Assembly (NCBI GenBank): GCA_964559865.1
Contig: CAZLJD010000025.1
Location: 771-64,770 of the forward strand
Reading direction: 5' to 3'
Origin: an uncultured Synergistota bacterium
GTDB taxonomy: Bacteria; Synergistota; JAGHAJ01
DNA: 64,000 nt
The position numbers were made by a program, and so were the translations under genes. Below the pieces are notes generated by a model. It had not been told where the DNA came from. It worked only from the letters and a program-made list of their open reading frames with translations, and did no database searches. Positions 38,614 through 63,066 of this stretch are shown here, one piece after another; position 1 is the stretch's first letter; the number at the start of each line of letters is the position of its first letter.

Positions 38614-39642
38614 ATGAGGAAGAGGTGGACGGTATTTTTGGCGATGGCACTGATAGTCTTATTCAGTACGACGAGCTTTGCAGCAAAGACGCTTGTTGTG
38701 TATGTTACCTACGACGCAGCAGAGGCCAAGATAATCATTTCACAGTTTGAGAAGGATACGGGCATCCATGTGAAGTGGGTCAGGATGTCTTCTGGGACAA
38801 CGCTGAATAGGTTAAGAGCAGAAAAGAAGCATCCTCAAGCAGATGTCTGGACGGGTGGTCCTTCTGATTCTTATGTAACTGCGGCAGAGTATGGAGTTCT
38901 TGAGCCTTACATTCCTCCAAATGCCAAGAACATTCCGGCAAAGTACAGGGATCCTAAGGGGTATTGGAATGGTATCTACCTTGGTATAATAGGATTTGCC
39001 ACCAATAAGAACTACCTTGCGAAGATGAAGAAGAAAAACAAGTTCTTTGAGGCACCCACAAGCTGGATGGACCTTCTAAATCCGTTTTATGAGAACAACA
39101 TTCAGATGCCCAACCCGGGTTCCTCTGGTACAGCGTTGACGATAGTCTCTACACTGATTCAGATATTTGGATGGGACAGAGCGTTTGAGTACATGAAGAT
39201 GCTTGATAAGCAGATTCAGCTCTATACCGAACACGGTGCGACCGGAGGTACTGCTGCAGGACTGGGTCAGTGTGCAGTAGGGGTGATATTTGGTCAAGAT
39301 ATACTTCATAGGATATACGAGAAGCACTATCCTTTGATACTTACATTCCCGAAGGAAGGAACGGGTTACGAGATAGGTGGAACTGCACTCATAAAGGGTG
39401 CGAAGCATGTAAAGGAGGCTAAAACATTTATCAACTGGATGCTTTCGAAGAGGGCTCAGAACCTTTGGGCAAAGACAGGATTCTTCCACTTCCCTACTGC
39501 TATAGGAGCGACTCCACCAAAGGGCTGGCCTCCACTTAGCAAGATCCACCTTATAAACTACGATGCAAAGTGGACGGGTGAGAACAGGGACAAGATAGTA
39601 AACACATGGACGAAGGAGATATTAGAGAGGCGTAAAAAGTAG
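38614..39642 (+). CDS. ABC transporter substrate-binding protein (AfuA/FbpA/PotD-like)
   Basis: Signal peptide, PQADVWTGG, PNPGSSGT, TGYEIGG. Confidence 0.88.
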   Translation: MRKRWTVFLAMALIVLFSTTSFAAKTLVVYVTYDAAEAKIIISQFEKDTGIHVKWVRMSSGTTLNRLRAEKKHPQADVWTGGPSDSYVTAAEYGVLEPYIPPNAKNIPAKYRDPKGYWNGIYLGIIGFATNKNYLAKMKKKNKFFEAPTSWMDLLNPFYENNIQMPNPGSSGTALTIVSTLIQIFGWDRAFEYMKMLDKQIQLYTEHGATGGTAAGLGQCAVGVIFGQDILHRIYEKHYPLILTFPKEGTGYEIGGTALIKGAKHVKEAKTFINWMLSKRAQNLWAKTGFFHFPTAIGATPPKGWPPLSKIHLINYDAKWTGENRDKIVNTWTKEILERRKK

Positions 39643-51223: not shown

Positions 51224-52004
51224 GAGGGTTTTAGAAGAGTTGTTGGAGGACTTTTCTGAAGGAAAGGTCTCAAAAGAAGATGTTTTGAAGGTATTTGAGA
51301 GTCTTCCTTATATGGATTTAGGGTTTGCACGGTTGGATACACACAGGCCATTCAGACGAGGATTGGATGAAGTAGTGTTTTGTAAAGGGAAGGCAAAGGA
51401 GCATGTAAAAGGCATTGCGAAGGCACTTTCTACTTCCACTGGTAATGTGGTTTTTACGCATGTTAACGAGGATATGTTTAGGGTTATTCAAGATGAAATT
51501 CCTGACATTGTGTATTACAAGGAGGCACTGATAGCAGCCTCTGTTAGGAGAAATGTTGATAAACCGAGAAAGGGTATAACGGTGGTTACTGCAGGCACTT
51601 CGGATATTAGGGTTGCGGAGGAGGCAGCTGTCATTGCTGAGATTTTGGGCAATGAGGTTGTTAGAATATACGATGTTGGTGTTGCCGGGATACATAGATT
51701 GTTTCCACACCTTGATACCTTGAGAAATTCGAATGTGGTTGTGACTGTTGCGGGTATGGAGGGCGCTTTAGTTACTGTAGTGGCTGGATTGATATCTTCT
51801 CCTGTCATAGCTGTTCCCACGAGCGTTGGCTATGGTGCAAACTTTAATGGACTTTCTTCTCTGCTTGCAATGTTGAATGCCTGTGTACCTGGTATAGGGG
51901 TGGTTAATATAGATAATGGTTTTGGTGCTGGGGTGTTGGCTCACATGATAAACAGTCTTGCGTACAGGGGTGATAGAAATAAAGATAGCGATACCAACCG
52001 ATGA
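51216..52004 (+). CDS. larB: Nickel-pincer cofactor biosynthesis protein LarB
   Basis: RLDTHR, TAGTSD, AEEA, DVGVAGIHRL, AGMEGAL, PTSVGYG, VNIDNGFGA. Confidence 0.93.
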   Translation: MDKRVLEELLEDFSEGKVSKEDVLKVFESLPYMDLGFARLDTHRPFRRGLDEVVFCKGKAKEHVKGIAKALSTSTGNVVFTHVNEDMFRVIQDEIPDIVYYKEALIAASVRRNVDKPRKGITVVTAGTSDIRVAEEAAVIAEILGNEVVRIYDVGVAGIHRLFPHLDTLRNSNVVVTVAGMEGALVTVVAGLISSPVIAVPTSVGYGANFNGLSSLLAMLNACVPGIGVVNIDNGFGAGVLAHMINSLAYRGDRNKDSDTNR

Positions 52005-52326
52005 TGGGGAGAAGGTATGCTCCAAGATGTTTGGTATGGCTGCATTTTATCTCATTTACGAATGTGATAGTGGAAAACTAAAGCTAATTGAAAAAAAGGT
52101 CAACCCCTATGCGAAGGAGATGCCAAGAGGAAAGACCTTTTATGTAATAGAGGTGCTCCGTGATTGTGATGTCTATGTGGTTTCTAGTATAGGAGCAAGG
52201 GGGAGAAGGAGGGTTTTGGAGAAGGGGATAACTATCTATGATGTTGAAAAAGGAATAGATATAAGTATAGTGCTGAAACGTATAGAGCTGGAGCTTTGTG
52301 GTGGACATGCTGTTGGTAGGGTATAG
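51970..52326 (+). CDS. NifB/NifX family cofactor-binding protein (start approximate)
   Basis: KIAIPTDDG...FGMAAFYLIY, DCDVYVVSSIGARG. Confidence 0.78.
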   Translation: MIEIKIAIPTDDGEKVCSKMFGMAAFYLIYECDSGKLKLIEKKVNPYAKEMPRGKTFYVIEVLRDCDVYVVSSIGARGRRRVLEKGITIYDVEKGIDISIVLKRIELELCGGHAVGRV

Positions 52327-53386
52327 CGTGAGGGCTCTGGCAGAATCTGTTGTTAAATACAGCTTTAGAGATGTGGTTGCCGTTGACTTTTTTGGGGATT
52401 GGGATTTGCGACATATTGTGGATAATGTTGAGGTCGTGGAAAGCAGGGAGCATTTGTCTACTATATTGGAAAGATATGCTAAACATGATGTAATCTATTC
52501 CTCCGTGTTGGAAAACGATGTAGTACTCCTTAACCTCTTGGGGGATAGGGTCATCGGTAACGGTGCAGAGGTGGTGGAAATAGTTAGGCCTGGCGAGAAG
52601 TGGTGGAATATTGCAGGGAGACTCCGTATAAGGATACCTAATGTTTTAACTGGGATGCTACCGTGTTGTTCGGGAAGGTGGTTGAAAAAACCTTATAAGA
52701 GTGGTGGTGGAAGAAGTATCTCTTTTTGGAGTGGCGAGAAGTTACCAGCTGGTTTTTATCTTCAAGAGTTTATAGATGGGGAGAGTTTTTCGTTTTTGTT
52801 TGTGAGTAATGGTAAAGATTTGATGCTTTTGGGTGTCACCCTTCAACTTGTTGGAGTGGACTTCCTTGGGGCTCACAGGTTTGCGTGGAGTGGAAATGTG
52901 TATCCAGCTAACCTTGAGCCTGACATCGTTGATGAAGTAAAAGAGTGGATTGCAAGGCTAACTTGTGAGGTAGGGCTTTGTGGTGTGTTTGGTGTAGATG
53001 TGATCGTGAAAGATAGCATCCCTTATGTTATAGAGATAAATCCAAGGTATACCGGTAGCATGGAGCTAATAGAGACTGCGTTGGGAATCAATATCTTTGG
53101 TCTCCACATGGGAGCGTGTAGAGGAAACCTTCCTCTTAATATTCCAGAGCCTTTGGCGTATTTCGGGAAAGGGATAGTTTATGCGGAAGTAGAACTCTGT
53201 GGTTTCAGAAGTGAAGAGATGTGGAATAGGGGTTTTAGAGATATACCGGTAGGTGAAAGCGTTATCCATAAGGGAAGCCCTGTTTGTTCTGTCTTTTCTT
53301 CAGGAGGGAGCATAGGAGAGGTAATAGATGGACTTATTGAGCAGAAGAGATGGTTGTATGAGAAGGGAGTGAGAACTTGTGTATAG
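52298..53386 (+). CDS. ATP-grasp carboligase of H4MPT/methanofuran clusters (COG2232-like)
   Basis: SVRALAES, VDFFGDWDL, KPYKSGGG, QEFIDG, EINPRYTGS. Confidence 0.8.
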   Translation: MVDMLLVGYSVRALAESVVKYSFRDVVAVDFFGDWDLRHIVDNVEVVESREHLSTILERYAKHDVIYSSVLENDVVLLNLLGDRVIGNGAEVVEIVRPGEKWWNIAGRLRIRIPNVLTGMLPCCSGRWLKKPYKSGGGRSISFWSGEKLPAGFYLQEFIDGESFSFLFVSNGKDLMLLGVTLQLVGVDFLGAHRFAWSGNVYPANLEPDIVDEVKEWIARLTCEVGLCGVFGVDVIVKDSIPYVIEINPRYTGSMELIETALGINIFGLHMGACRGNLPLNIPEPLAYFGKGIVYAEVELCGFRSEEMWNRGFRDIPVGESVIHKGSPVCSVFSSGGSIGEVIDGLIEQKRWLYEKGVRTCV

Positions 53387-53753
53387 GCTGATTACTGGTA
53401 GAACTGCAAAACAAGGTGTGGCTCTTCATGTGGGTAAGACCACAAGGCAGTATCAGGAATCGGTTGCTGTTGCCTATTTTAACGAAGAGGATATGCGGAG
53501 AAATGGGATAGCCGAGGGGGGGGCTGTTTTGCTGAGAAGCAAGTTTGGTAGAGTAGTAGTCAGGGCACATAAAGGGAGTGTCCCTAAGGGGATGGTATTT
53601 ATGCCTTACGGTCCTTGGGCAAACCTTTTGACATCTGCTGATACCAATGGGATAGGAATGCCAGATTTGAAGGGTGTAGAAGTTGATGCAACTTCCTCTA
53701 ATGAAGAAATCTGGGATTGGGAACGGGTGCTGAAAGAGGTGAATAGTCAATGA
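53379..53753 (+). CDS. fwdD: Formylmethanofuran dehydrogenase subunit D (molybdopterin dinucleotide-binding)
   Basis: LITGRT..QG, VFMPYGPWAN, GMPDLKG. Confidence 0.9.
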   Translation: MYRLITGRTAKQGVALHVGKTTRQYQESVAVAYFNEEDMRRNGIAEGGAVLLRSKFGRVVVRAHKGSVPKGMVFMPYGPWANLLTSADTNGIGMPDLKGVEVDATSSNEEIWDWERVLKEVNSQ

Positions 53754-55027
53754 GGATACAAAATGTCGTTTGCCCCTTCTGTGGTTGCCTATGTGATGAT
53801 ATAGAAGTGGAAATAGAAAGCGGAAAGGTAGTTAATGTTAAAAAGGCTTGTGGAGTGGGGAGGGCATTGTTTCTTAATCACGAAGAGGACCTTGCTGAAC
53901 CTTTAATGTATGGAAGTGTCGCTTCTATAGAGGATGTTGTGACAGAGGCTGTAAGAGTGGTATCTTCTGCTAAGCATCTTCTTATATATGGGCTTAGCTC
54001 TACATCTATAGAAGCACAAAGAATGGCGATAAGATTGGCGGAATTGGTTGGTGGCAGTATAGATCAGACATCTTCTGTTTGTCACGGACCTACGACTATG
54101 GCAATTCAACAGTCTGGGATTCCTACCTGCACGCTGGGAGAGGCAAAGAACAGGGCAGATGTTGTAGTCTTTTGGGGTTCAAATCCTTTGGAGTCCCATC
54201 AGAGGCATTATGAGAGGTACTCACTGTTTGCAAAGGGTATGTTTGTGCCAGACGGTAGGAAGGGCAGAAAACTTGTAGTTATTGATGTAAGGGATACAGT
54301 TTCTTCTAAGCTGGCAAATCTGTTTGTTCGTGTAGAGTATGGGAGTGATTATGAAGTCCTTACTGCGTTGAGGATGTTGCTCAAGGGGGTAAAACCTTCA
54401 AAAGAATGTGTAGGTGGCGTTTGTATAGATGAATTACAGAAGCTGTTAGATGTGATGCTGTCGGCGAAGTATGGTGTGATATTCTTTGGCATGGGATTGA
54501 CGATGACTGGAGGGAAGTATCACAATATAGAGGCGGCCATATCTCTTGTAAGAGAGTTAAACGCTCATGCAAGGTGGTCAATAGAAGCTATGAGGGGACA
54601 TTATAATGTCAAGGGGGCTGGGAGTGTTTTGGCTTGGCAGACGGGCTTTCCCTTTGCGGTGAATTTCTCTTTGGGATACCCGAGATATATGCCGGGTGAG
54701 TTTTCTGCTGTTGATCTACTTAGGAGGAGGGAGATAGACGCTATGCTGGTTATAGCCTCTGATCCTGTTGCTACATTTCCAAGGTCTGCTGTGAAAACAA
54801 TGATGGAGATCCCACTAATATCTATAGACCCAAAGCAAAGCTTAACAACGAAGGTAGCTGATGTCGTTATACCGACGGCGCAGGTTGGAATTGCAGCGGA
54901 AGGGACGGCTTATCGTATGGATGGTGTCCCTCTGAGGCTGAAAAAGATAGTAGATTCTCCTTTTCCTTCAGACGAGGAGGTCATTTCCTCCATAATAAGA
55001 GGAGTGAAGAAGGTGAAATATCAATGA
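53750..55027 (+). CDS. fwdB: Formylmethanofuran dehydrogenase subunit B (Mo/W-pterin)
   Basis: CPFCGCLCDD...C Fe-S motif, SVCHGP, MRGHYNV. Confidence 0.93.
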   Translation: MRIQNVVCPFCGCLCDDIEVEIESGKVVNVKKACGVGRALFLNHEEDLAEPLMYGSVASIEDVVTEAVRVVSSAKHLLIYGLSSTSIEAQRMAIRLAELVGGSIDQTSSVCHGPTTMAIQQSGIPTCTLGEAKNRADVVVFWGSNPLESHQRHYERYSLFAKGMFVPDGRKGRKLVVIDVRDTVSSKLANLFVRVEYGSDYEVLTALRMLLKGVKPSKECVGGVCIDELQKLLDVMLSAKYGVIFFGMGLTMTGGKYHNIEAAISLVRELNAHARWSIEAMRGHYNVKGAGSVLAWQTGFPFAVNFSLGYPRYMPGEFSAVDLLRRREIDAMLVIASDPVATFPRSAVKTMMEIPLISIDPKQSLTTKVADVVIPTAQVGIAAEGTAYRMDGVPLRLKKIVDSPFPSDEEVISSIIRGVKKVKYQ

Positions 55028-56655
55028 GTAGATTTGTTATAAGAAATGGTAAGATTTACGATCCTGCGAATAATGTGCATGGTGATGTGAGAGACATTTT
55101 TGTTGATAATGGGAAGATTGTTGATGCTATGGATATGGATGGCGTAGAGGTTGTAGACGCAGATGGTATGATAGTAGCCCCTGGTAATGTGGAGATACAT
55201 AGCCATATAGCAGGTCCCAAGCTTACTATAGGCAGGCTCTTGAGACCAGAAGATCATATAAGAGATGTCGTAAAAAGCGAGTATCCATTGAGATCCGGCG
55301 TTGGTTTTTCTATTCCTACTACTTTTATTACTGCTTACAGATACCTTACATTGGGATATACCACACTTATGGAGGCAGCTGTTCCACCACTGGAAGCAAG
55401 ACACACCCTTGATGAGTTAGAAGACATGCCAGTAGTTGACAAAGGTATGTATATCCTTATGGGCAATAACAACATACTGTTTTCTCTACTTAAGGAGAAA
55501 GAGTATGATATGGCAAGAGACTTTGTTGGTTGGTTATTGAAGGCCACGGGTGGTTATGCTATCAAGGTGGTCAACCCAGGTGGTACAGATAGCTGGAAGT
55601 GGGGCAAGATATTTAACTCCTTGAGAGACGAAACAGTATGGGGAATAAGACCTATTGATGTCCTTAAGCTTTTGGTTGAGAGTGTGGAATACTTTCACCT
55701 TCCGCATCCTGTTCACCTTCATACATATAATCTTGGTTCCCCCGGTAGTTATAATGCAGCTTTAGATACTATCCATGCTCTTGGGGATTATTCCTTGCAT
55801 CTTACCCATTTGCAGTATTATTGCTATGGGGGTGATAGTTGGTCCACATTTAGATCTGAGGCTGAAGAAGTTGCTGCTGAATTGAGAGATCACCCTAAGA
55901 TCACTGCAGATATGGGTCAAGTTCTGTTTGAAGATACGACTACTATGACGGCAGATACGCCGTGGCAATACAAGTTACACATGCTCACTGGTAATAGATG
56001 GGTTAGCACAGATGTTGAGGTCGAGGCGGGCTCGGGTATAGTTCCTTATAGATATAAGAGGAGTAGTATAGTTAATGCGGTTCAGTGGGCTACGGGTTTG
56101 GAACTTGCTTTGATGCTTAGCCCTTGGCAGATATTTCTGACAACAGATAGCCCGAATGGTGGACCGTTTTTTATGTACCCAGAGGTTATAAGGTGGCTAA
56201 CCAGTGAGGATGCAAGACAGGATGTGATAAGCTCGCTACCTTCCTCCTTTAAGAGAAGGACTATATTGGGAGATATCCACAGAGAGTTGTCATTAGAGGA
56301 GATAATAGTCATGATGAGTTCAGGTCCTGCTAAGGCTTTAGGTCTCAAGAATAGGGGGCACCTGGGTATTGGAGCAGATGCTGACATAGCAATATACAAA
56401 GAGAGGGGTAGTGTAGCTGATACGCTGTCCCGTGTTCATATGCTGTTTAAAAGCGGGGAGTTAGTTGTGGACGATGGAAAGATAGTTTCGGGGGAACTGG
56501 TGGGCAAACTCTTTGTTGTGGATACCGGGGTAGATGATGAGGTGTTGGGTGATAAAGTGGCAAGAATGTTCGATGAGTTCTATTCCGTTAGCTTTTCTAA
56601 CTATAGGGTAGAAGATGTGTATCTCAGGAATAGGGAGGTAGTCTGCTGTGGATAG
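55024..56655 (+). CDS. fwdA: Formylmethanofuran dehydrogenase subunit A (amidohydrolase)
   Basis: IHSHIAG, KVVNPGG, HPVHLH, TTDSPNGGPF. Confidence 0.94.
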   Translation: MSRFVIRNGKIYDPANNVHGDVRDIFVDNGKIVDAMDMDGVEVVDADGMIVAPGNVEIHSHIAGPKLTIGRLLRPEDHIRDVVKSEYPLRSGVGFSIPTTFITAYRYLTLGYTTLMEAAVPPLEARHTLDELEDMPVVDKGMYILMGNNNILFSLLKEKEYDMARDFVGWLLKATGGYAIKVVNPGGTDSWKWGKIFNSLRDETVWGIRPIDVLKLLVESVEYFHLPHPVHLHTYNLGSPGSYNAALDTIHALGDYSLHLTHLQYYCYGGDSWSTFRSEAEEVAAELRDHPKITADMGQVLFEDTTTMTADTPWQYKLHMLTGNRWVSTDVEVEAGSGIVPYRYKRSSIVNAVQWATGLELALMLSPWQIFLTTDSPNGGPFFMYPEVIRWLTSEDARQDVISSLPSSFKRRTILGDIHRELSLEEIIVMMSSGPAKALGLKNRGHLGIGADADIAIYKERGSVADTLSRVHMLFKSGELVVDDGKIVSGELVGKLFVVDTGVDDEVLGDKVARMFDEFYSVSFSNYRVEDVYLRNREVVCCG

Positions 56656-57532
56656 TATGGTAACCATGGTTGAAGATACATTTGCAGAGGCATTCAAAAT
56701 GTACGGTGTTCGTCTGATAATTACGGCTATTAACAGAGAGTGGGTTATGCACGCAGCAAGGTGTGTGACAGGATTCGCTACATCGGTTATAGGTTGTGGG
56801 TGTGAAGCTGGCATAGAAGGTGATGTGGAAGACGCTCCTGATGGCAGGGTAGGAGTAAGTGTACTCATCTTTTCGATGACCAAAGACTCCCTTGAGAAAC
56901 AGCTTTTGAACAGGATAGGACAGTGCGTTTTGACATGTCCCACTGCATCCTGCTTTAATGGGCTTGACTGTGATGAGATGCTTCCTGTTGGAAAGAAGTT
57001 AAGGTACTTTGGTGACGGGTTTCAAATGAGCAAGTTTATAAATGGTAGAAGGTTCTGGAGGATCCCCATTATGGAAGGAGAGGCATTAATAGAGGAGAGT
57101 TATGGTGTGGCTGAAGCGGTAGGGGGTGGAAATATACTCATTTTGGCAGACTCTGTTGAACATGCGCTATATGCCAGTGAGAAAGCAGTTTCTTCGGCTA
57201 ATGTGGTGAAGGGTGTAATAATGCCTTTCCCGGGAGGTGTCGTGAGGAGTGGCAGTAAGGTGGGTTCTAAATATAAGTTTTTGCATGCCTCTACAAATAC
57301 TGCTTTTGTTCCTCAATTGCGAGCACACACTTCGAAGGATTTGCTGAGTGGTGTCAGATCTGTGTTGGAAATAGTCTTTGATGGATTATCTTTGGATGCT
57401 GTTAAGAAGGCTATGAGGTTGGCTATAGAGAATGCGGTTGGGTGTGAAGGTGTATTGGGGATAAGTGCAGGAAACTATGGCGGTAATCTTGGTAAGTATA
57501 GGATATATCTGAAAGAGGTTTTGGAGGTCTGA
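56648..57532 (+). CDS. ftr: Formylmethanofuran:H4MPT formyltransferase (Ftr/FhcD)
   Basis: EDTFAEAF, GCEAGIE, RIGQCVLTCPT, PFPGGVVRSGSKVGS, SAGNYGG. Confidence 0.96.
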   Translation: MDSMVTMVEDTFAEAFKMYGVRLIITAINREWVMHAARCVTGFATSVIGCGCEAGIEGDVEDAPDGRVGVSVLIFSMTKDSLEKQLLNRIGQCVLTCPTASCFNGLDCDEMLPVGKKLRYFGDGFQMSKFINGRRFWRIPIMEGEALIEESYGVAEAVGGGNILILADSVEHALYASEKAVSSANVVKGVIMPFPGGVVRSGSKVGSKYKFLHASTNTAFVPQLRAHTSKDLLSGVRSVLEIVFDGLSLDAVKKAMRLAIENAVGCEGVLGISAGNYGGNLGKYRIYLKEVLEV

Positions 57533-57536
57533 GAAG

Positions 57537-58349
57537 ATGGTTAGGTTAAAGCTAAAAGAAGAAATTAGTGTGCCTTTGGAGATCCCTGCTGCCAAACCGG
57601 ATGTGATAGTAAAGTGTTCTGGTATTTCAGAAGTAGAACGATTACCTGTATATTACGGTAACGAAACGGCCTTTTTAGGTGATTTTTTTGAGGTGACAGG
57701 GAGAGTAGAGGATGTTGTCTTTTTAGAAGGGGATCTGAAAAAGGTGAAGAGGATTGGTGAAAATATGTCCTTTGGTACTATTGAGGTGTATGGAGATGTT
57801 GGAATGCACCTCGCCAAGGGTATGCGTGGTGGTAAAGTTTTTGTGCATGGAAATGTTTCTGATTGGATGGCATCTGGTATGAGTGGTGGTATTATTAGAG
57901 TTGATGGTAATGTTGGCAACTTTGCTTGTGCATCATACTGGGGTGAGAGAAGAGGAGTAACTGGTGGAGTGGTATTTATAAATGGCTCTGTAGGTGACGA
58001 CCTTGGAAGGAGGATGAGGAGGGGCATTGTCCTTGTATCTGGTAGTGCTGGTAAGTTTGCTGGTTCTGAAGTGATTGCTGGCACGATCTTTATCATGGGT
58101 GAGGTAGGAGATGGGCTTGGGGCAGGTATGAAGAGGGGTAGTATAGTTTTGCGTCATCAACCGGAATTATTGCCTTCATTTTTGTATAGTGGTGAATTTA
58201 AGCCTTATTTCATTTCTGTTTATTTTCGTTACTTCGAAGATGTCTTTTCTTTTGAATTGTCGTCTGTGTTTGGAAAAGGCTATTTCAGGCGATATATGGG
58301 AGACTTTCTTTCTTTTGGTAAAGGAGAGATTCTTGTATGCTTAGATTGA
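57537..58349 (+). CDS. fwdC: Formylmethanofuran dehydrogenase subunit C
   Basis: GXGXXG beta-helix repeats (GXGMXGG, RRMRRG, GAGMKRG). Confidence 0.92.
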   Translation: MVRLKLKEEISVPLEIPAAKPDVIVKCSGISEVERLPVYYGNETAFLGDFFEVTGRVEDVVFLEGDLKKVKRIGENMSFGTIEVYGDVGMHLAKGMRGGKVFVHGNVSDWMASGMSGGIIRVDGNVGNFACASYWGERRGVTGGVVFINGSVGDDLGRRMRRGIVLVSGSAGKFAGSEVIAGTIFIMGEVGDGLGAGMKRGSIVLRHQPELLPSFLYSGEFKPYFISVYFRYFEDVFSFELSSVFGKGYFRRYMGDFLSFGKGEILVCLD

Positions 58350-59266
58350 ACGAAAGGGCTTGGGGTATCCTTTTAGATGTGGTTGAACATGCAGTTGATC
58401 TTCGGGTGAGGACATTTTACTCTAAAGGCGGTGCTATTTTGGTGGATGCGGGGATTGAGGCTGAAGGCTCTCTGAATGCTGGTATACTCATCTCTGAGAT
58501 GTTGCTTTCGGGTTTGGGAGATGTAAATGTCTTTTATGCGTCTGATTGGCTTAGTGTTCAGGTTTCTACAGATTTGCCTGTGGTTGCTTGTCTTGCCTCT
58601 CAGTATGCTGGGTGGAAGATCTCTTTGGGCAGTTTTTATGGCATGTGTTCCGGACCCGGTAGGCTCTTGGGGAGCAAAGAGGAGCTCTTTGATAGGTTTG
58701 GATGGTTGGAAGGTAGCACGAGGGCAGTATTGTTTATAGAGACATCTGATGTGCCTTCTCAGGAGGTAGTGGAGTATGTGTCCGATAGTTGCAAACTACA
58801 CGAGGACAGAATAGGTATAGTATTTTCGTCTTCTAATAGTCTTGTGGGTTCCATACAGGTGCCAGCGAGAGTGGTGGAGACAGGCATCCACAAGCTCATG
58901 GAGGTAGGTTATGATGTTTCAAAGATAAGATCAGCAGTGGGGTCTTCACCTATACCTCCTATAGGTGAGAGTGCTCTGGATGCTATAGGAAAATTGAATG
59001 ATGCTATCATATATGGAGGAAGGACGATATTCTATGTGGATGATGCAGACGACTTGTCAGATGTTATTAAGAAGATTCCTTCGAGTGCTTCTGCAAACTA
59101 TGGTTTACCGTTTTTGGAAATATTCGGGCGAAACAACAATGACTTTTACAGTATAGATCCCCTTTTGTTCAGCCCGGCTGAAGTCTCTATGATATCTCTT
59201 AGAACAGGTAGGCTCTACCGTGCTGGTAGAGTGAATGTTGAGATATTGGAGAACTCTTTCAGATGA
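58337..59266 (+). CDS. mch: Methenyl-H4MPT cyclohydrolase
   Basis: DAGIEAEGS, CLASQYAGW, SGPGR, NDAIIYGG, FYSIDPLLFSPA. Confidence 0.96.
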   Translation: MLRLNERAWGILLDVVEHAVDLRVRTFYSKGGAILVDAGIEAEGSLNAGILISEMLLSGLGDVNVFYASDWLSVQVSTDLPVVACLASQYAGWKISLGSFYGMCSGPGRLLGSKEELFDRFGWLEGSTRAVLFIETSDVPSQEVVEYVSDSCKLHEDRIGIVFSSSNSLVGSIQVPARVVETGIHKLMEVGYDVSKIRSAVGSSPIPPIGESALDAIGKLNDAIIYGGRTIFYVDDADDLSDVIKKIPSSASANYGLPFLEIFGRNNNDFYSIDPLLFSPAEVSMISLRTGRLYRAGRVNVEILENSFR

Positions 59267-60135
59267 GGCTTGGTATTGTGTCTACTGGTGCGGGATGGCA
59301 AGTGGAAGAGTTGAAAAGAGCTGCTGAGGATAGAGGATGGGATGTAGTTATGCTATCTCCCACAAGGTTTTCTGTTACCCTTCCTGAGATCGATCTAAGT
59401 ATTCAGGGGAGAACTGTTACTGATTGTGATGCAGTTCTTGTCCGTAGTGTGCCACTTGGCTCTTTGGAGCAGGTGGTGTTTAGGTTGGATGTGCTGTACG
59501 CATTAGAGAGTAGTGGCATTCCAGTTGTAAATAGGCCATTTACGATAGAAAGAACAGTGGACAAGTTTTACACCTCTGTGGTGCTTTCGGGTATCGGTTT
59601 GCCTACGCCGAAGACAGTGGTTGTTGAGAGACTTTCTGATGCGATGGAATACTTTGACCAGCTTGGTGGTGATGTGGTCGTCAAACCTGTTTTTGGTTCG
59701 AATGGGGTGGGGATAGTTAGAATAAGGGATAAAGATGAGGCCTACAGAGTGTTTAAGGGGTTTCAGCTTTTAAGGTATGTCTTCTACATGCAAGAGTTTG
59801 TGCCGCACGGAGATTATGATGTTAGGGTTTTTTGGGCAAATGGAGATGTGGTTTCTGCGATGAAACGCCTTTCAGGAGGGTGGAAGAATAACATACATCA
59901 AGGTGGCAAGCCCGAATACTATAGAGTGGATGACGAACTAAGAGCGGTGTGCGGCAAGATTGCAGAGGTATTCAAAGCAGATTACCTCGGTATAGACTTA
60001 TTATTTTCGGAAGATGGCAGGATGTATGTCATAGAGGTAAATGGTATCCCCGGATGGAGGGGCTTGCAGAGTATTACGGATGTGAATATAGCAGGTGAAA
60101 TATTGAGATGCATAGAGAAAAGAAAGCTTTTATAG
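59263..60135 (+). CDS. RimK-family ATP-grasp glutamate ligase (Orf5/MptN-like)
   Basis: VDKFYTS, KPVFGSNG, QEF, DVRV, EVNGIPGW. Confidence 0.88.
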   Translation: MRLGIVSTGAGWQVEELKRAAEDRGWDVVMLSPTRFSVTLPEIDLSIQGRTVTDCDAVLVRSVPLGSLEQVVFRLDVLYALESSGIPVVNRPFTIERTVDKFYTSVVLSGIGLPTPKTVVVERLSDAMEYFDQLGGDVVVKPVFGSNGVGIVRIRDKDEAYRVFKGFQLLRYVFYMQEFVPHGDYDVRVFWANGDVVSAMKRLSGGWKNNIHQGGKPEYYRVDDELRAVCGKIAEVFKADYLGIDLLFSEDGRMYVIEVNGIPGWRGLQSITDVNIAGEILRCIEKRKLL

Positions 60136-60965
60136 TGAAGTGTGCTCAGCTTGCGTGTTTGTACGAGGCAAGCTCTCCTAAACCGGGTAATGTGTATCCT
60201 TTTAAAGGTTTCCCTGAAATGAGCTTCGTGGATTTCGTTCTTGCTTCGGTGAACACTGGGATCACATTGTACGATGTGGATAAATTTGGTGTTGGAAAGC
60301 TCATATATAGATCATTAGAGAAAACATATCAGAATCTCAGTGTGAATGTTAATCTTGGTGTGGTTTTACTGATAGTTCCTTTGGCAAGGGCGTTTTGGAT
60401 AAAAGCTGATGAGGAGCCTTTGAGAGATGCTCTTTGTGAGGTTTTAAGCTCTTTGACCGTTGAGGATGCGGAGTGGGTGTATAGGGGCATAAGAATGGTT
60501 TCGCCTGGGGGTATAGGTGAATCTAAGAAAGCAGACGTTAGGAGCACTCCAGATATTACACTCAAGGAGGCTATGAAGATTGCGGAAAGCAGGGATTCGA
60601 TTGCGTATGAGTATGCTAATTGCTATAAGATGACATTTGGTTTTTTGTATCCCCGTTTGCTCAATAATAGACAGGATTTAGGCCTTCAGGATGCAGTAGT
60701 GCACACATTTTTAGAGTTGCTTTCAGAAGTGCCAGATTCGCTTATTGTGCGTAAATATGGTATGGATGTGGCGATGGATGTGGTTAATAGAGCTCGATCT
60801 ACTCTGGCTGCTGGTGGAATGCGGAGTGCCGAAGGTAGGAAAGCTGTCTTAGACTTGGATGATTACCTTCGTAGTGGTAGGAGAAAACTGAATCCGGGGA
60901 CATCTGCTGATCTTATAGCTTCGGCTTTAATGGTCTACTTTTTGGAAGGGAATTCTGTTACATAG
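60108..60965 (+). CDS. CitG-like triphosphoribosyl transferase (Orf7-like)
   Basis: EASSPKPGNV, NLGVVLL, DSLIVRKYG, NPGTSADL. Confidence 0.88.
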   Translation: MHREKKAFIVKCAQLACLYEASSPKPGNVYPFKGFPEMSFVDFVLASVNTGITLYDVDKFGVGKLIYRSLEKTYQNLSVNVNLGVVLLIVPLARAFWIKADEEPLRDALCEVLSSLTVEDAEWVYRGIRMVSPGGIGESKKADVRSTPDITLKEAMKIAESRDSIAYEYANCYKMTFGFLYPRLLNNRQDLGLQDAVVHTFLELLSEVPDSLIVRKYGMDVAMDVVNRARSTLAAGGMRSAEGRKAVLDLDDYLRSGRRKLNPGTSADLIASALMVYFLEGNSVT

Positions 60966-62172: not shown

Positions 62173-63066
62173 ATGCCTAAGAAGGTTGTTTTTTTCTTGA
62201 GTAGTGACAAGTATGCAAGCCCATTTGATGTGCTTGTGCTTTACGATGGTGGGGCAGATGCGGTGGTTACATATGGGGATGTGTCTGTAGATGATGTGAG
62301 GAGCCTCGTGATGGATGCCATGTTCCCGCGGGGTCCCAAGGGGATAGGGGATACTACACTGTTTATAGGTGGCAAGGATGTAGCTAAGTGTGAGGAGATG
62401 CTGAAGGTGGCTAAAAAGACTATGTTTCCTCCGTTTGAGATTTCGGTTATCTTTGACCCGGCTGGTTCCTGCACGACTTCTGCTGCACTGGTTGCCAAAG
62501 TTGCTTACACGGTCAAAGAGAGGCTTGGGGGTACTCTTTCCGGTAGGAAAATTACGGTGTTGGCGGGTGCTGGGAATGTGGGTTCTCGTGCTGCTCATCT
62601 GTTTGCTAAGGAGGGAGCAGATGTTGTTATAGCAGATCTGGCTAATGATGTGGCCAAAAAAGTAGCAAGTGAGGTAAACGAGAAGGTGGGTTTGGGGAAG
62701 GTGAGCGTCTTCGAACTCGAAAGGTCTGATGATTCAGTTTATGAAGCGTGTAAAAATTCTGAGATTGTAGTATCCACTGCTCCTCCGGGTGTGAGAACGC
62801 TTTCTAAAGATGTCCTTGGTAAGCTTTCTGGTTGCAAGTTAGTGGCAGATATAAATGCTGTTCCACCAGAGGGTATAGAGGGGATGAAAGCAACTGCAGA
62901 TGGAGATGAGATAGCGAGCGGTGTCTTTTCTGTTGGGCCGCTGAGTATAGGTGTGGTGAAGTTGCAGGTTGAGTTGAAGTTGGTGGAGGAGGCAGTTTCT
63001 TCTCAGAAGGGTATATTTGGATATGAAGAGGCATATGAGCTTGCTAAAAAGGTGGTAGGTATCTGA
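62173..63066 (+). CDS. mtd: NAD(P)-dependent methylene-H4MPT dehydrogenase (MtdA/B/C family)
   Basis: SPFDV..YDGGAD, MFPRGP, IFDPAGSCTTSAA, DINAVPP.GIEG. Confidence 0.9.
   Translation: MPKKVVFFLSSDKYASPFDVLVLYDGGADAVVTYGDVSVDDVRSLVMDAMFPRGPKGIGDTTLFIGGKDVAKCEEMLKVAKKTMFPPFEISVIFDPAGSCTTSAALVAKVAYTVKERLGGTLSGRKITVLAGAGNVGSRAAHLFAKEGADVVIADLANDVAKKVASEVNEKVGLGKVSVFELERSDDSVYEACKNSEIVVSTAPPGVRTLSKDVLGKLSGCKLVADINAVPPEGIEGMKATADGDEIASGVFSVGPLSIGVVKLQVELKLVEEAVSSQKGIFGYEEAYELAKKVVGI

Follow-up and report, generated by a model that had tools for sequence, protein, structure and literature searches.

A fwdDBA-ftr-fwdC operon in a Synergistota genome

Textbooks credit bacteria with only the formyltransferase/hydrolase complex (Fhc), which is metal-free and releases formate. 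We analyzed a 64,000-nucleotide stretch (the window) of contig CAZLJD010000025.1 of an uncultured Synergistota bacterium (assembly GCA_964559865.1; 1.74 Mb, 41 contigs, 94.5% complete), which carries an operon for a formylmethanofuran dehydrogenase (Fwd; EC 1.2.7.12), in all likelihood a redox-active enzyme, and for formylmethanofuran:tetrahydromethanopterin (H4MPT) formyltransferase (Ftr). Five genes on the plus strand are involved. fwdD (53379-53753; GTG start, 124 residues) encodes the cap ("fourth") domain of the molybdenum/tungsten (Mo/W)-bis-pterin site, fwdB (53750-55027; 425 residues) the formate-dehydrogenase-like catalytic subunit and fwdA (55024-56655; 543 residues) the amidohydrolase subunit that interconverts formylmethanofuran with formate and methanofuran. 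They are followed by ftr (56648-57532; 294 residues) and by fwdC (57537-58349; 270 residues), which encodes a β-helix scaffold.

The genes are tightly packed, with overlaps of 4 nucleotides at the fwdD/fwdB and fwdB/fwdA junctions and of 8 nucleotides between fwdA and ftr, and a gap of 4 nucleotides between ftr and fwdC. The full order is D-B-A-ftr-C, then mch, and the fwd operon is free of frameshifts and internal stops. An original prediction, made from the nucleotide sequence, had reported the order B-A-ftr-C with a retained fwdD; both the order and the gene boundaries proved correct. The nearest relatives of FwdB carry the labels of Synergistota metagenome-assembled genomes (MAGs). Locus (L), genome (G) and contig (C) numbers used below are our own.

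Catalytic subunits FwdB, FwdD and FwdA

FwdB, of the MopB family, matches TIGR03129 with 554 bits (cut-off 328). Against solved structures it scores 443 bits with archaeal 8RJA_B and 440 bits with 5T5I_B, as compared with 45 bits for FhcB of Methylorubrum extorquens (6S6Y_B). In the translation, the N-terminal [4Fe-4S] motif reads C8-x2-C11-x3-C15 ... C34, Cys111-His112 of SSVC111H112GP align with Cys118-His119 of 5T5I_B and 8RJA_B, and Arg282 (MRGHYNV) aligns with Arg288 of the same two structures. The CxxCxxxC...C motif and the SVCHGP cysteine named in the original prediction are thus present, and the alignment with FwdB and FhcB places the protein with the archaeal enzymes. By comparison, FhcB no longer possesses an N-terminal [4Fe-4S] domain, Cys118 (Ser62 in FhcB), His119, Arg288 and the FwdD cap (Hemmann 2019, PMC6926001).

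C8, C11, C15, C34, C111, H112 and R282 are invariant in our FwdB alignment (A1), and all nine Synergistota FwdB proteins recovered with a hidden Markov model, a search not based on motifs, retain the cluster and active-site residues. Two FwdB motifs served to fetch a wider set of 80 loci, in which these motifs are conserved by construction; the search pattern did not include the Cys-His dyad. Across 92 FwdB hits, a total that counts the Synergistota loci and repeated retrievals of the gene in the window, the dyad reads Cys-His in 88, TGA-His in three and Arg-His in one.

The FwdB gene of Desulfosporosinus lacus, in an operon of identical order, carries a TGA in frame precisely where the catalytic Cys is expected (SSYUHGP), as do two Nitrospinota genes (L074 and L077; SSV*HSP). 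Selenocysteine at the catalytic site of relatives is hard to square with a mere scaffold role. The TGA-bearing genes of L046:8001-9290 (D. lacus DSM 15449), L074 and L077 probably encode bacterial selenocysteine forms of FwdB, and the cultured strain DSM 15449 has two copies of this type. The copy of Desulfosporosinus sp. SbF1 (L029), with Arg at the catalytic position and Pro in place of the active-site Arg, may be a degenerate or mis-sequenced selenocysteine-type gene.

FwdD contains the PF01568 Molydop_binding domain (3.5e-16), scores 111 bits with the FwdD model NF042908, under its cut-off of 175 bits, and matches 2ki8_A (6.8e-25) and 5t5i_D (6.4e-21). FwdA (TIGR03121, 661 bits) aligns with 487 bits to 9sw6_I and 481 bits to 5t5i_A, compared with 315 bits to FhcA (6s6y_A), and the ligands of its binuclear metal site, read from the alignment to 9sw6_I, are H59-x-H61, K181 (the counterpart of the carboxylated Lys), H233 and the Asp of TTDSPN. 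Ratios of nonsynonymous to synonymous substitutions against a same-genus genome are 0.05 for fwdB and 0.13 for fwdD, rough values because synonymous sites are saturated, and they indicate purifying selection on both genes. By sequence, then, FwdB is of the archaeal redox type, and the enzyme looks like a redox-competent Fwd and not like a cofactor-less Fhc.

Ftr and the docking element of FwdC

Ftr has both family domains (PF01913 and PF02741), scores 407 bits with NF002554 and is marginally closest to FhcD among known structures (6s6y_D, 275 bits, versus 1ftr_A, 273 bits). FwdC (TIGR03122, 232 bits) is likewise marginally closest to FhcC (6s6y_C, aligned to residue 267; 149 versus 138 bits). 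In FhcC, two helices (residues 216-246) stand in place of the β-hairpin of archaeal FwdC and dock the formyltransferase within Fhc. The window's FwdC aligns without gaps to residues 210-262 of 6s6y_C, through these docking helices, whereas against archaeal FwdC the alignment breaks off close to residue 222. An AlphaFold2 model of FwdC (mean predicted local distance difference test score, pLDDT, 95) shows a helix at 224-237, a loop and a second helix at 243-247, corresponding to an FhcC-type C-terminal helix-loop-helix at about residues 222-250.

The predicted Ftr-FwdC complex reached an ipSAE score of 0.70 (0.68-0.73 between runs), while the best control reached 0.00; in a benchmark, that mark was attained by 58 of 80 solved complexes and by 2 of 110 mismatched pairs. 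The runs agreed in at least 97% of contacts, with a partner pLDDT of at least 91, and placed the interface on residues 221-232 of FwdC. Ftr therefore probably docks on FwdC as it does in methylotroph Fhc, judging from these models, which makes the Ftr-Fwd complex of the original prediction plausible. The likeness to Fhc would go beyond gene order, as a redox-competent enzyme appears to have the FhcC-type Ftr dock already. Since the dock is found on redox-competent enzymes, these sequences suggest that Ftr docking preceded loss of the redox site on the path to Fhc. The fetched loci supplied 51 FwdC proteins; 20 of the 23 whose genes adjoin ftr have the insertion, compared with 3 of the other 28.

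Distribution and phylogeny

The D-B-A-ftr-C arrangement with a cysteine- or selenocysteine-type FwdB occurs in at least ten bacterial phyla and also in Bathyarchaeia and Hadesarchaea. Its hosts include Clostridia, Desulfosporosinus, Halanaerobium, Methylomirabilota, Acidobacteriota, Desulfobacterota, Actinomycetota, a gammaproteobacterial MAG and Bathyarchaeia; the Hadesarchaea loci are truncated after ftr (D-B-A-ftr) and several Anaerolineales loci before it. The arrangement often comes after mtdAB and an mfnD-like gene and is followed by mch-mptN-citG-like, the operon of D. lacus reading mtdAB-mfnD-like-fwdD-B-A-ftr-C-mch-mptN-citG-like. What had been taken for a special "hybrid" and a rare "evolutionary intermediate" is consequently a large extant lineage.

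In a quick maximum-likelihood tree of FwdB, bacteria and archaea are split with 98% support in the Shimodaira-Hasegawa-like approximate likelihood ratio test. The window's protein clusters with three relatives from a sister family, and another four sequences from Synergistota belong to a separate clade of bacteria (L007/L009 and L010/L011, apart from the window, L004, L006 and L008). With two or more Synergistota clades, the operon has had more than one history in the phylum. The FwdB of a Candidatus Desulfaltia MAG (L019) lies inside a Bathyarchaeia clade, which suggests transfer or mis-binning.

A sample of 61 Planctomycetota genomes, examined for true methylotroph FhcB, yielded only two degenerate FwdB-like proteins, which nest among the bacteria. 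Both keep the four Fe-S cysteines, but parts of the active site are gone; L102 (genome G087) has Ser for the catalytic Cys and Phe for the His after the Arg, and L103 (genome G047) has RMRHYGD, so that the two represent graded steps between FwdB and FhcB. The methylotroph gene order is D-B-A-ftr-C minus fwdD. A derivation of Fhc from Ftr-linked Fwd enzymes fits these sequences on a tree that is unrooted and leaves out proteobacterial FhcB.

Comparison with known systems

With FwdABCDFG of Methanothermobacter wolfeii (5T5I) and the archaeal formylmethanofuran dehydrogenases 8RJA, 9SW6 and 7BKB, the window's enzyme shares the sequences of FwdB, FwdD and FwdA (440-487 bits), the catalytic and cluster ligands, the ligands of the binuclear metal site with its carboxy-Lys and the β-helix of FwdC. 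It differs from them in that its operon is devoid of FwdF/G and FwdE and includes ftr, that a helix-loop-helix takes the place of the β-hairpin of archaeal FwdC and that the host is a fermentative bacterium. FwdF and FwdG are part of the M. wolfeii enzyme but not of every archaeal operon. Methanosarcina acetivorans FwdDBAC, which has the same D-B-A-C set and no F/G subunits, is presumed to use free ferredoxin (Matschiavelli and Rother 2015, as cited in PMC7325909); in that archaeal system, ftr is not part of the operon. With FhcABCD of M. extorquens (6S6Y; PMC6926001), the shared features are the order B-A-ftr(D)-C, a FwdC most similar to FhcC and with its docking helices, and an Ftr most similar to FhcD; the window's enzyme, unlike the formate-releasing Fhc complex, keeps the Fe-S domain, Cys, His, Arg and FwdD.

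The operon type has been published, and the window's locus is neither novel nor unusual. In Merino 2020 (PMC7325909), fwdDBA-ftr-fwdC is described from Candidatus Hakubella thermalkaliphila as Fhc-like in layout, with no fwdE or fwdFG and with the [4Fe-4S] domain and Cys118 present, so that the redox reading of the original prediction had already been put forward for that organism. Our Hakubella locus (L020) reads B-A-ftr-C-mptN. Hakubella belongs to another phylum, the window's FwdB clade is separate from it on the tree, and H4MPT cofactor genes, reported missing in Hakubella, are present in the window's operon. According to Chistoserdova 2016 (PMC5020050), Synergistetes are among the carriers of H4MPT genes, and the clusters that keep fwdD include those of Synergistetes, Firmicutes and NC10. 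The number of bacterial FwdB homologues was put at 149 by Wells et al. (2023). The FwdC dock is not discussed in the accessible parts of PMC7325909 and PMC5020050, and an Fhc-type Ftr dock on an apparently redox-competent enzyme, as indicated by sequence and model, is the modest, incremental point added here.

Pathway context and electron partner

The five genes are embedded in an operon-like block of about 20 kb of H4MPT and methanofuran genes. Its upstream part encodes a GHMP kinase resembling ribofuranosylaminobenzene 5'-phosphate synthase, a PucR regulator, a 593-residue protein, LarC2, a solute:sodium symporter family (SSF) protein, LarB, a NifX-like protein and an ATP-grasp ligase (52298-53386, plus strand; PF02655, 83 bits). 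This ligase, which stands before fwdD in nearly all related bacterial operons, distantly resembles MfnD of methanofuran biosynthesis (NF040722, 44 bits, far under the cut-off). Downstream of fwdC lie mch (58337-59266, plus strand), which overlaps fwdC by 13 nucleotides and encodes methenyl-H4MPT cyclohydrolase (PF02289, 344 bits; TIGR03120, 339 bits), and genes for an MptN-like H4MPT:glutamate ligase (59263-60135, plus strand; NF040720, 262 bits), a CitG-like protein (60108-60965, plus strand; PF01874, 210 bits), LarC, an MtdA/MtdB-like NAD(P)-dependent methylene-H4MPT dehydrogenase (62173-63066, plus strand) and an ADP-ribosylglycohydrolase-like protein. An MptH-like dihydropteroate-synthase homologue and AfpA are encoded directly past the window's end. 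The dehydrogenase gene is the sole match to PF09176 (Mpt_N) in the genome (100.6 bits as a protein, 103.1 bits in the genome search). mptN-like and CitG-like cofactor genes also come after mch in related operons.

A scan of all six-frame open reading frames for CxxCxxCxxxC revealed no FwdF/G-type polyferredoxin in the window, as noted in the original prediction, or elsewhere in the assembly: no reading frame has more than three such motifs, none lies near the operon, and the motif is confined to small ferredoxins and larger Fe-S enzymes. Reading frames resembling FwdF/G flank fwd in some archaeal loci only, and in none of the bacterial or ftr-linked loci. The genome encodes one [FeFe] hydrogenase, several small ferredoxins (those of the 2x[4Fe-4S] type include C9:17181-17384, C5:27157-27408 and C30:38537-38800), Fhs and an FdhA-like protein. 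Mer and Fae were not found in the genome, and the pathway accordingly has no methyl branch and spans only methylene-H4MPT to CO2. As a possible electron module we also considered the 2.5-3.5 kb that separate fwdA from ftr in L031 and in L062; these inserts encode enzymes of H4MPT biosynthesis (FolE2-like, hydroxymethyldihydropterin pyrophosphokinase, dihydropteroate-synthase-like) and not Fe-S or flavoproteins.

The PucR regulator and the symporter head the operon, as they do in G007, a Synergistota genome of a sister family, where the operon reads pucR-SSF-DUF2193-mfnD-like-fwdDBA-ftr-fwdC and so on. There, a 506-residue DUF2193 protein (L099:15088-16608, minus strand; "conserved in archaea") occupies the place of the window's 593-residue protein and lar genes. 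A relation between the two proteins was rejected, as BLASTP detects no similarity between them; either could be an enzyme feeding the pathway. In a Desulfobacteraceae MAG (L062:1133-5009), larB, larC and a homologue of the 593-residue protein (54% identity) lie directly upstream of mtdAB-mfnD-like-fwdDBA, and the association of nickel-pincer genes and the 593-residue protein with the operon therefore recurs outside Synergistota.

Proposed function

We consider it likely that the operon encodes a W/Mo-pterin FwdABCD-Ftr complex that oxidizes formyl groups to CO2 and delivers the electrons to a general ferredoxin. The sequence itself shows the gene content, the ligands of the active site and of the cluster, a dock of the FhcC type and the action of purifying selection, whereas the metal content, the physical association of Ftr, oxidation as the direction, ferredoxin as the partner and the origin of the one-carbon (C1) units are inferred. 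In the entry step, the MtdA/B-like dehydrogenase would oxidize methylene-H4MPT to methenyl-H4MPT, which Mch would convert to formyl-H4MPT. Ftr, docked on FwdC, would transfer the formyl group to methanofuran, FwdA would release formate from formyl-methanofuran into an internal channel, and FwdBD would oxidize the formate to CO2, with the two electrons leaving through the single FwdB [4Fe-4S] cluster. Since FwdF/G are not encoded, the most likely acceptor would be a 2x[4Fe-4S] ferredoxin in soluble form, and the [FeFe] hydrogenase of the cell could reoxidize it with formation of H2. Oxidation to CO2 is favored by the PucR regulator and symporter at the operon head and by a module that covers only the steps between methylene-H4MPT and CO2. 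Part of the original prediction, a redox-active complex oxidizing formyl groups to CO2, is thereby retained: the sequence features are those of a redox-competent enzyme and free ferredoxin is the most plausible partner, although the label of an evolutionary intermediate had to be dropped.

A more specific proposal, which we put forward only tentatively, is a channelled Fwd with docked Ftr, possibly with tethered polyglutamyl-methanofuran as in Fhc, that would turn an imported C1-yielding substrate into CO2 and very low-potential ferredoxin for H2 formation in anaerobic, amino-acid-fermenting Synergistota. The PucR regulator, the SSF symporter and the 593-residue or DUF2193 protein would mark the candidates for this substrate. 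If it were true, the H4MPT pathway would have a fermentative, energy-relevant role outside methanogens and methylotrophs. A working bacterial W/Mo formylmethanofuran dehydrogenase would in any case take C1 units straight to CO2 and capture the electrons at about -500 mV; where the host is strictly anaerobic, like this Synergistota bacterium, H2 production would benefit, as would syntrophic life in digesters and in oil reservoirs. Enzymes of this type are common in genomes, but to our knowledge none has been purified from a bacterium, so that any tractable source of a bacterial redox-type Fwd would be useful.

Several observations weigh against an oxidative, redox-active complex. The operon has no gene for an electron-transfer partner, so that the acceptor is a guess, and the direction cannot be read from the sequence. 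The Ftr-FwdC prediction may be mere memory of the solved Fhc structure 6S6Y; with the homologous complex already solved, a passing score shows likeness and not binding by this copy. The link between FwdC insertion and ftr adjacency comes down to only 2-3 changes on the FwdC tree. A statistical association (20/3/3/25) was therefore rejected, as three independent pairs permit no test, and the insertion marks one lineage, bacteria plus Bathyarchaeia, rather than repeated co-evolution. A 2024 review (PMC11656701) lists Fhc as the only bacterial structure and no purified bacterial enzyme of the type proposed here. Finally, searches of the assembly, at 94.5% completeness, detected no MoaA, MoaC, MoaE or MoeA (MoeA_N), so that pterin synthesis cannot be shown for this genome, and two same-genus contigs with moaC/moeA (about 23 kb) are without a counterpart here.

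The last two observations would fit an enzyme that is inactive in this strain, with pterin synthesis lost and the fwd genes left as recent relics, which we regard as very improbable. Seven intact genes of the AOR family of tungstoenzymes, one of them on this contig, a MobA-like gene (86 bits) beside that of the 922-residue FdhA-like protein, and two genes for MoCF_biosynth-domain proteins (example loci in genome G000: C25:73894-74496, C21:72850-73470 and C11:481-3809) would then be equally useless, the operon is intact, and 5.5% of the genome is missing from an assembly in 41 contigs. In view of these genes an unassembled region is far likelier than loss of moa/moe. Real loss of the molybdenum cofactor was accordingly rejected as the leading explanation given the seven AOR-family enzymes, although it is unproven either way; the search for moa and mob genes suggested earlier returned the MobA-like gene but none of the early biosynthetic ones. 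Among 40 sampled relatives, all eight that bear FwdB possess both MoaC and MoeA, while FwdB is missing from each of the ten that are devoid of MoaC. The abundance of AOR enzymes suggests tungsten as the metal. The missing molybdopterin genes would also suit an enzyme that functions as Fhc, with FwdBD a structural relic, formylmethanofuran hydrolyzed and formate released to the FdhA-like enzyme or Fhs, both of which are encoded separately in the genome; the Fhc-like gene order and the FwdC dock agree with this as well. We nevertheless consider it improbable, since this enzyme and the whole clade retain everything that disappeared in Fhc (the Fe-S domain, Cys-His, Arg and FwdD; PMC6926001), fwdB and fwdD are under strong selection, and selenocysteine at the site in relatives with the same operon would be senseless in a scaffold.

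A better-founded alternative, though still an unlikely one, has the same redox-active FwdABCD-Ftr running reductively, with ferredoxin driving CO2 to formyl-methanofuran, formyl-H4MPT and methylene-H4MPT for biosynthesis or as an electron sink, and with amino-acid or aldehyde oxidation supplying the reduced ferredoxin. Archaeal Fwd is reversible (PMC11656701), the cell has many ferredoxin-reducing AOR enzymes, and a CO2-reducing or CO-linked role was weighed for the Hakubella operon in Merino 2020 (PMC7325909). Without Mer, however, there would be no onward route to the methyl level, and a tetrahydrofolate-linked formate route (Fhs, FdhA-like) is already there for C1 biosynthesis. A PucR-type regulator and a solute symporter at the operon head are usual for catabolic operons, and the dehydrogenase is of the NAD(P)-linked MtdA/B type, which is oxidative in methylotrophs.

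Other features of the window

Immediately upstream of the mfnD-like gene and fwdD, the window encodes a 122-residue NifX/NifB-C-terminal-like protein (51958-52326, plus strand; PF02579, dinitrogenase FeMo-cofactor-binding family), whose gene overlaps both neighbors and is not present in the operon of G007. An ABC transporter further upstream was considered as a molybdate or tungstate system and rejected, as the binding protein encoded with it (38614-39642) resembles PhnS2 and is unrelated. The remainder of the window holds ordinary bacterial housekeeping genes, including flagellar and chemotaxis genes, LepA and FeoB. Over positions 1-64000, at a guanine-plus-cytosine (GC) content of 43%, GC skew is unusually strong and uniform, at about +0.25 to +0.41 per 2-kb bin, and nearly all genes lie on the plus strand.

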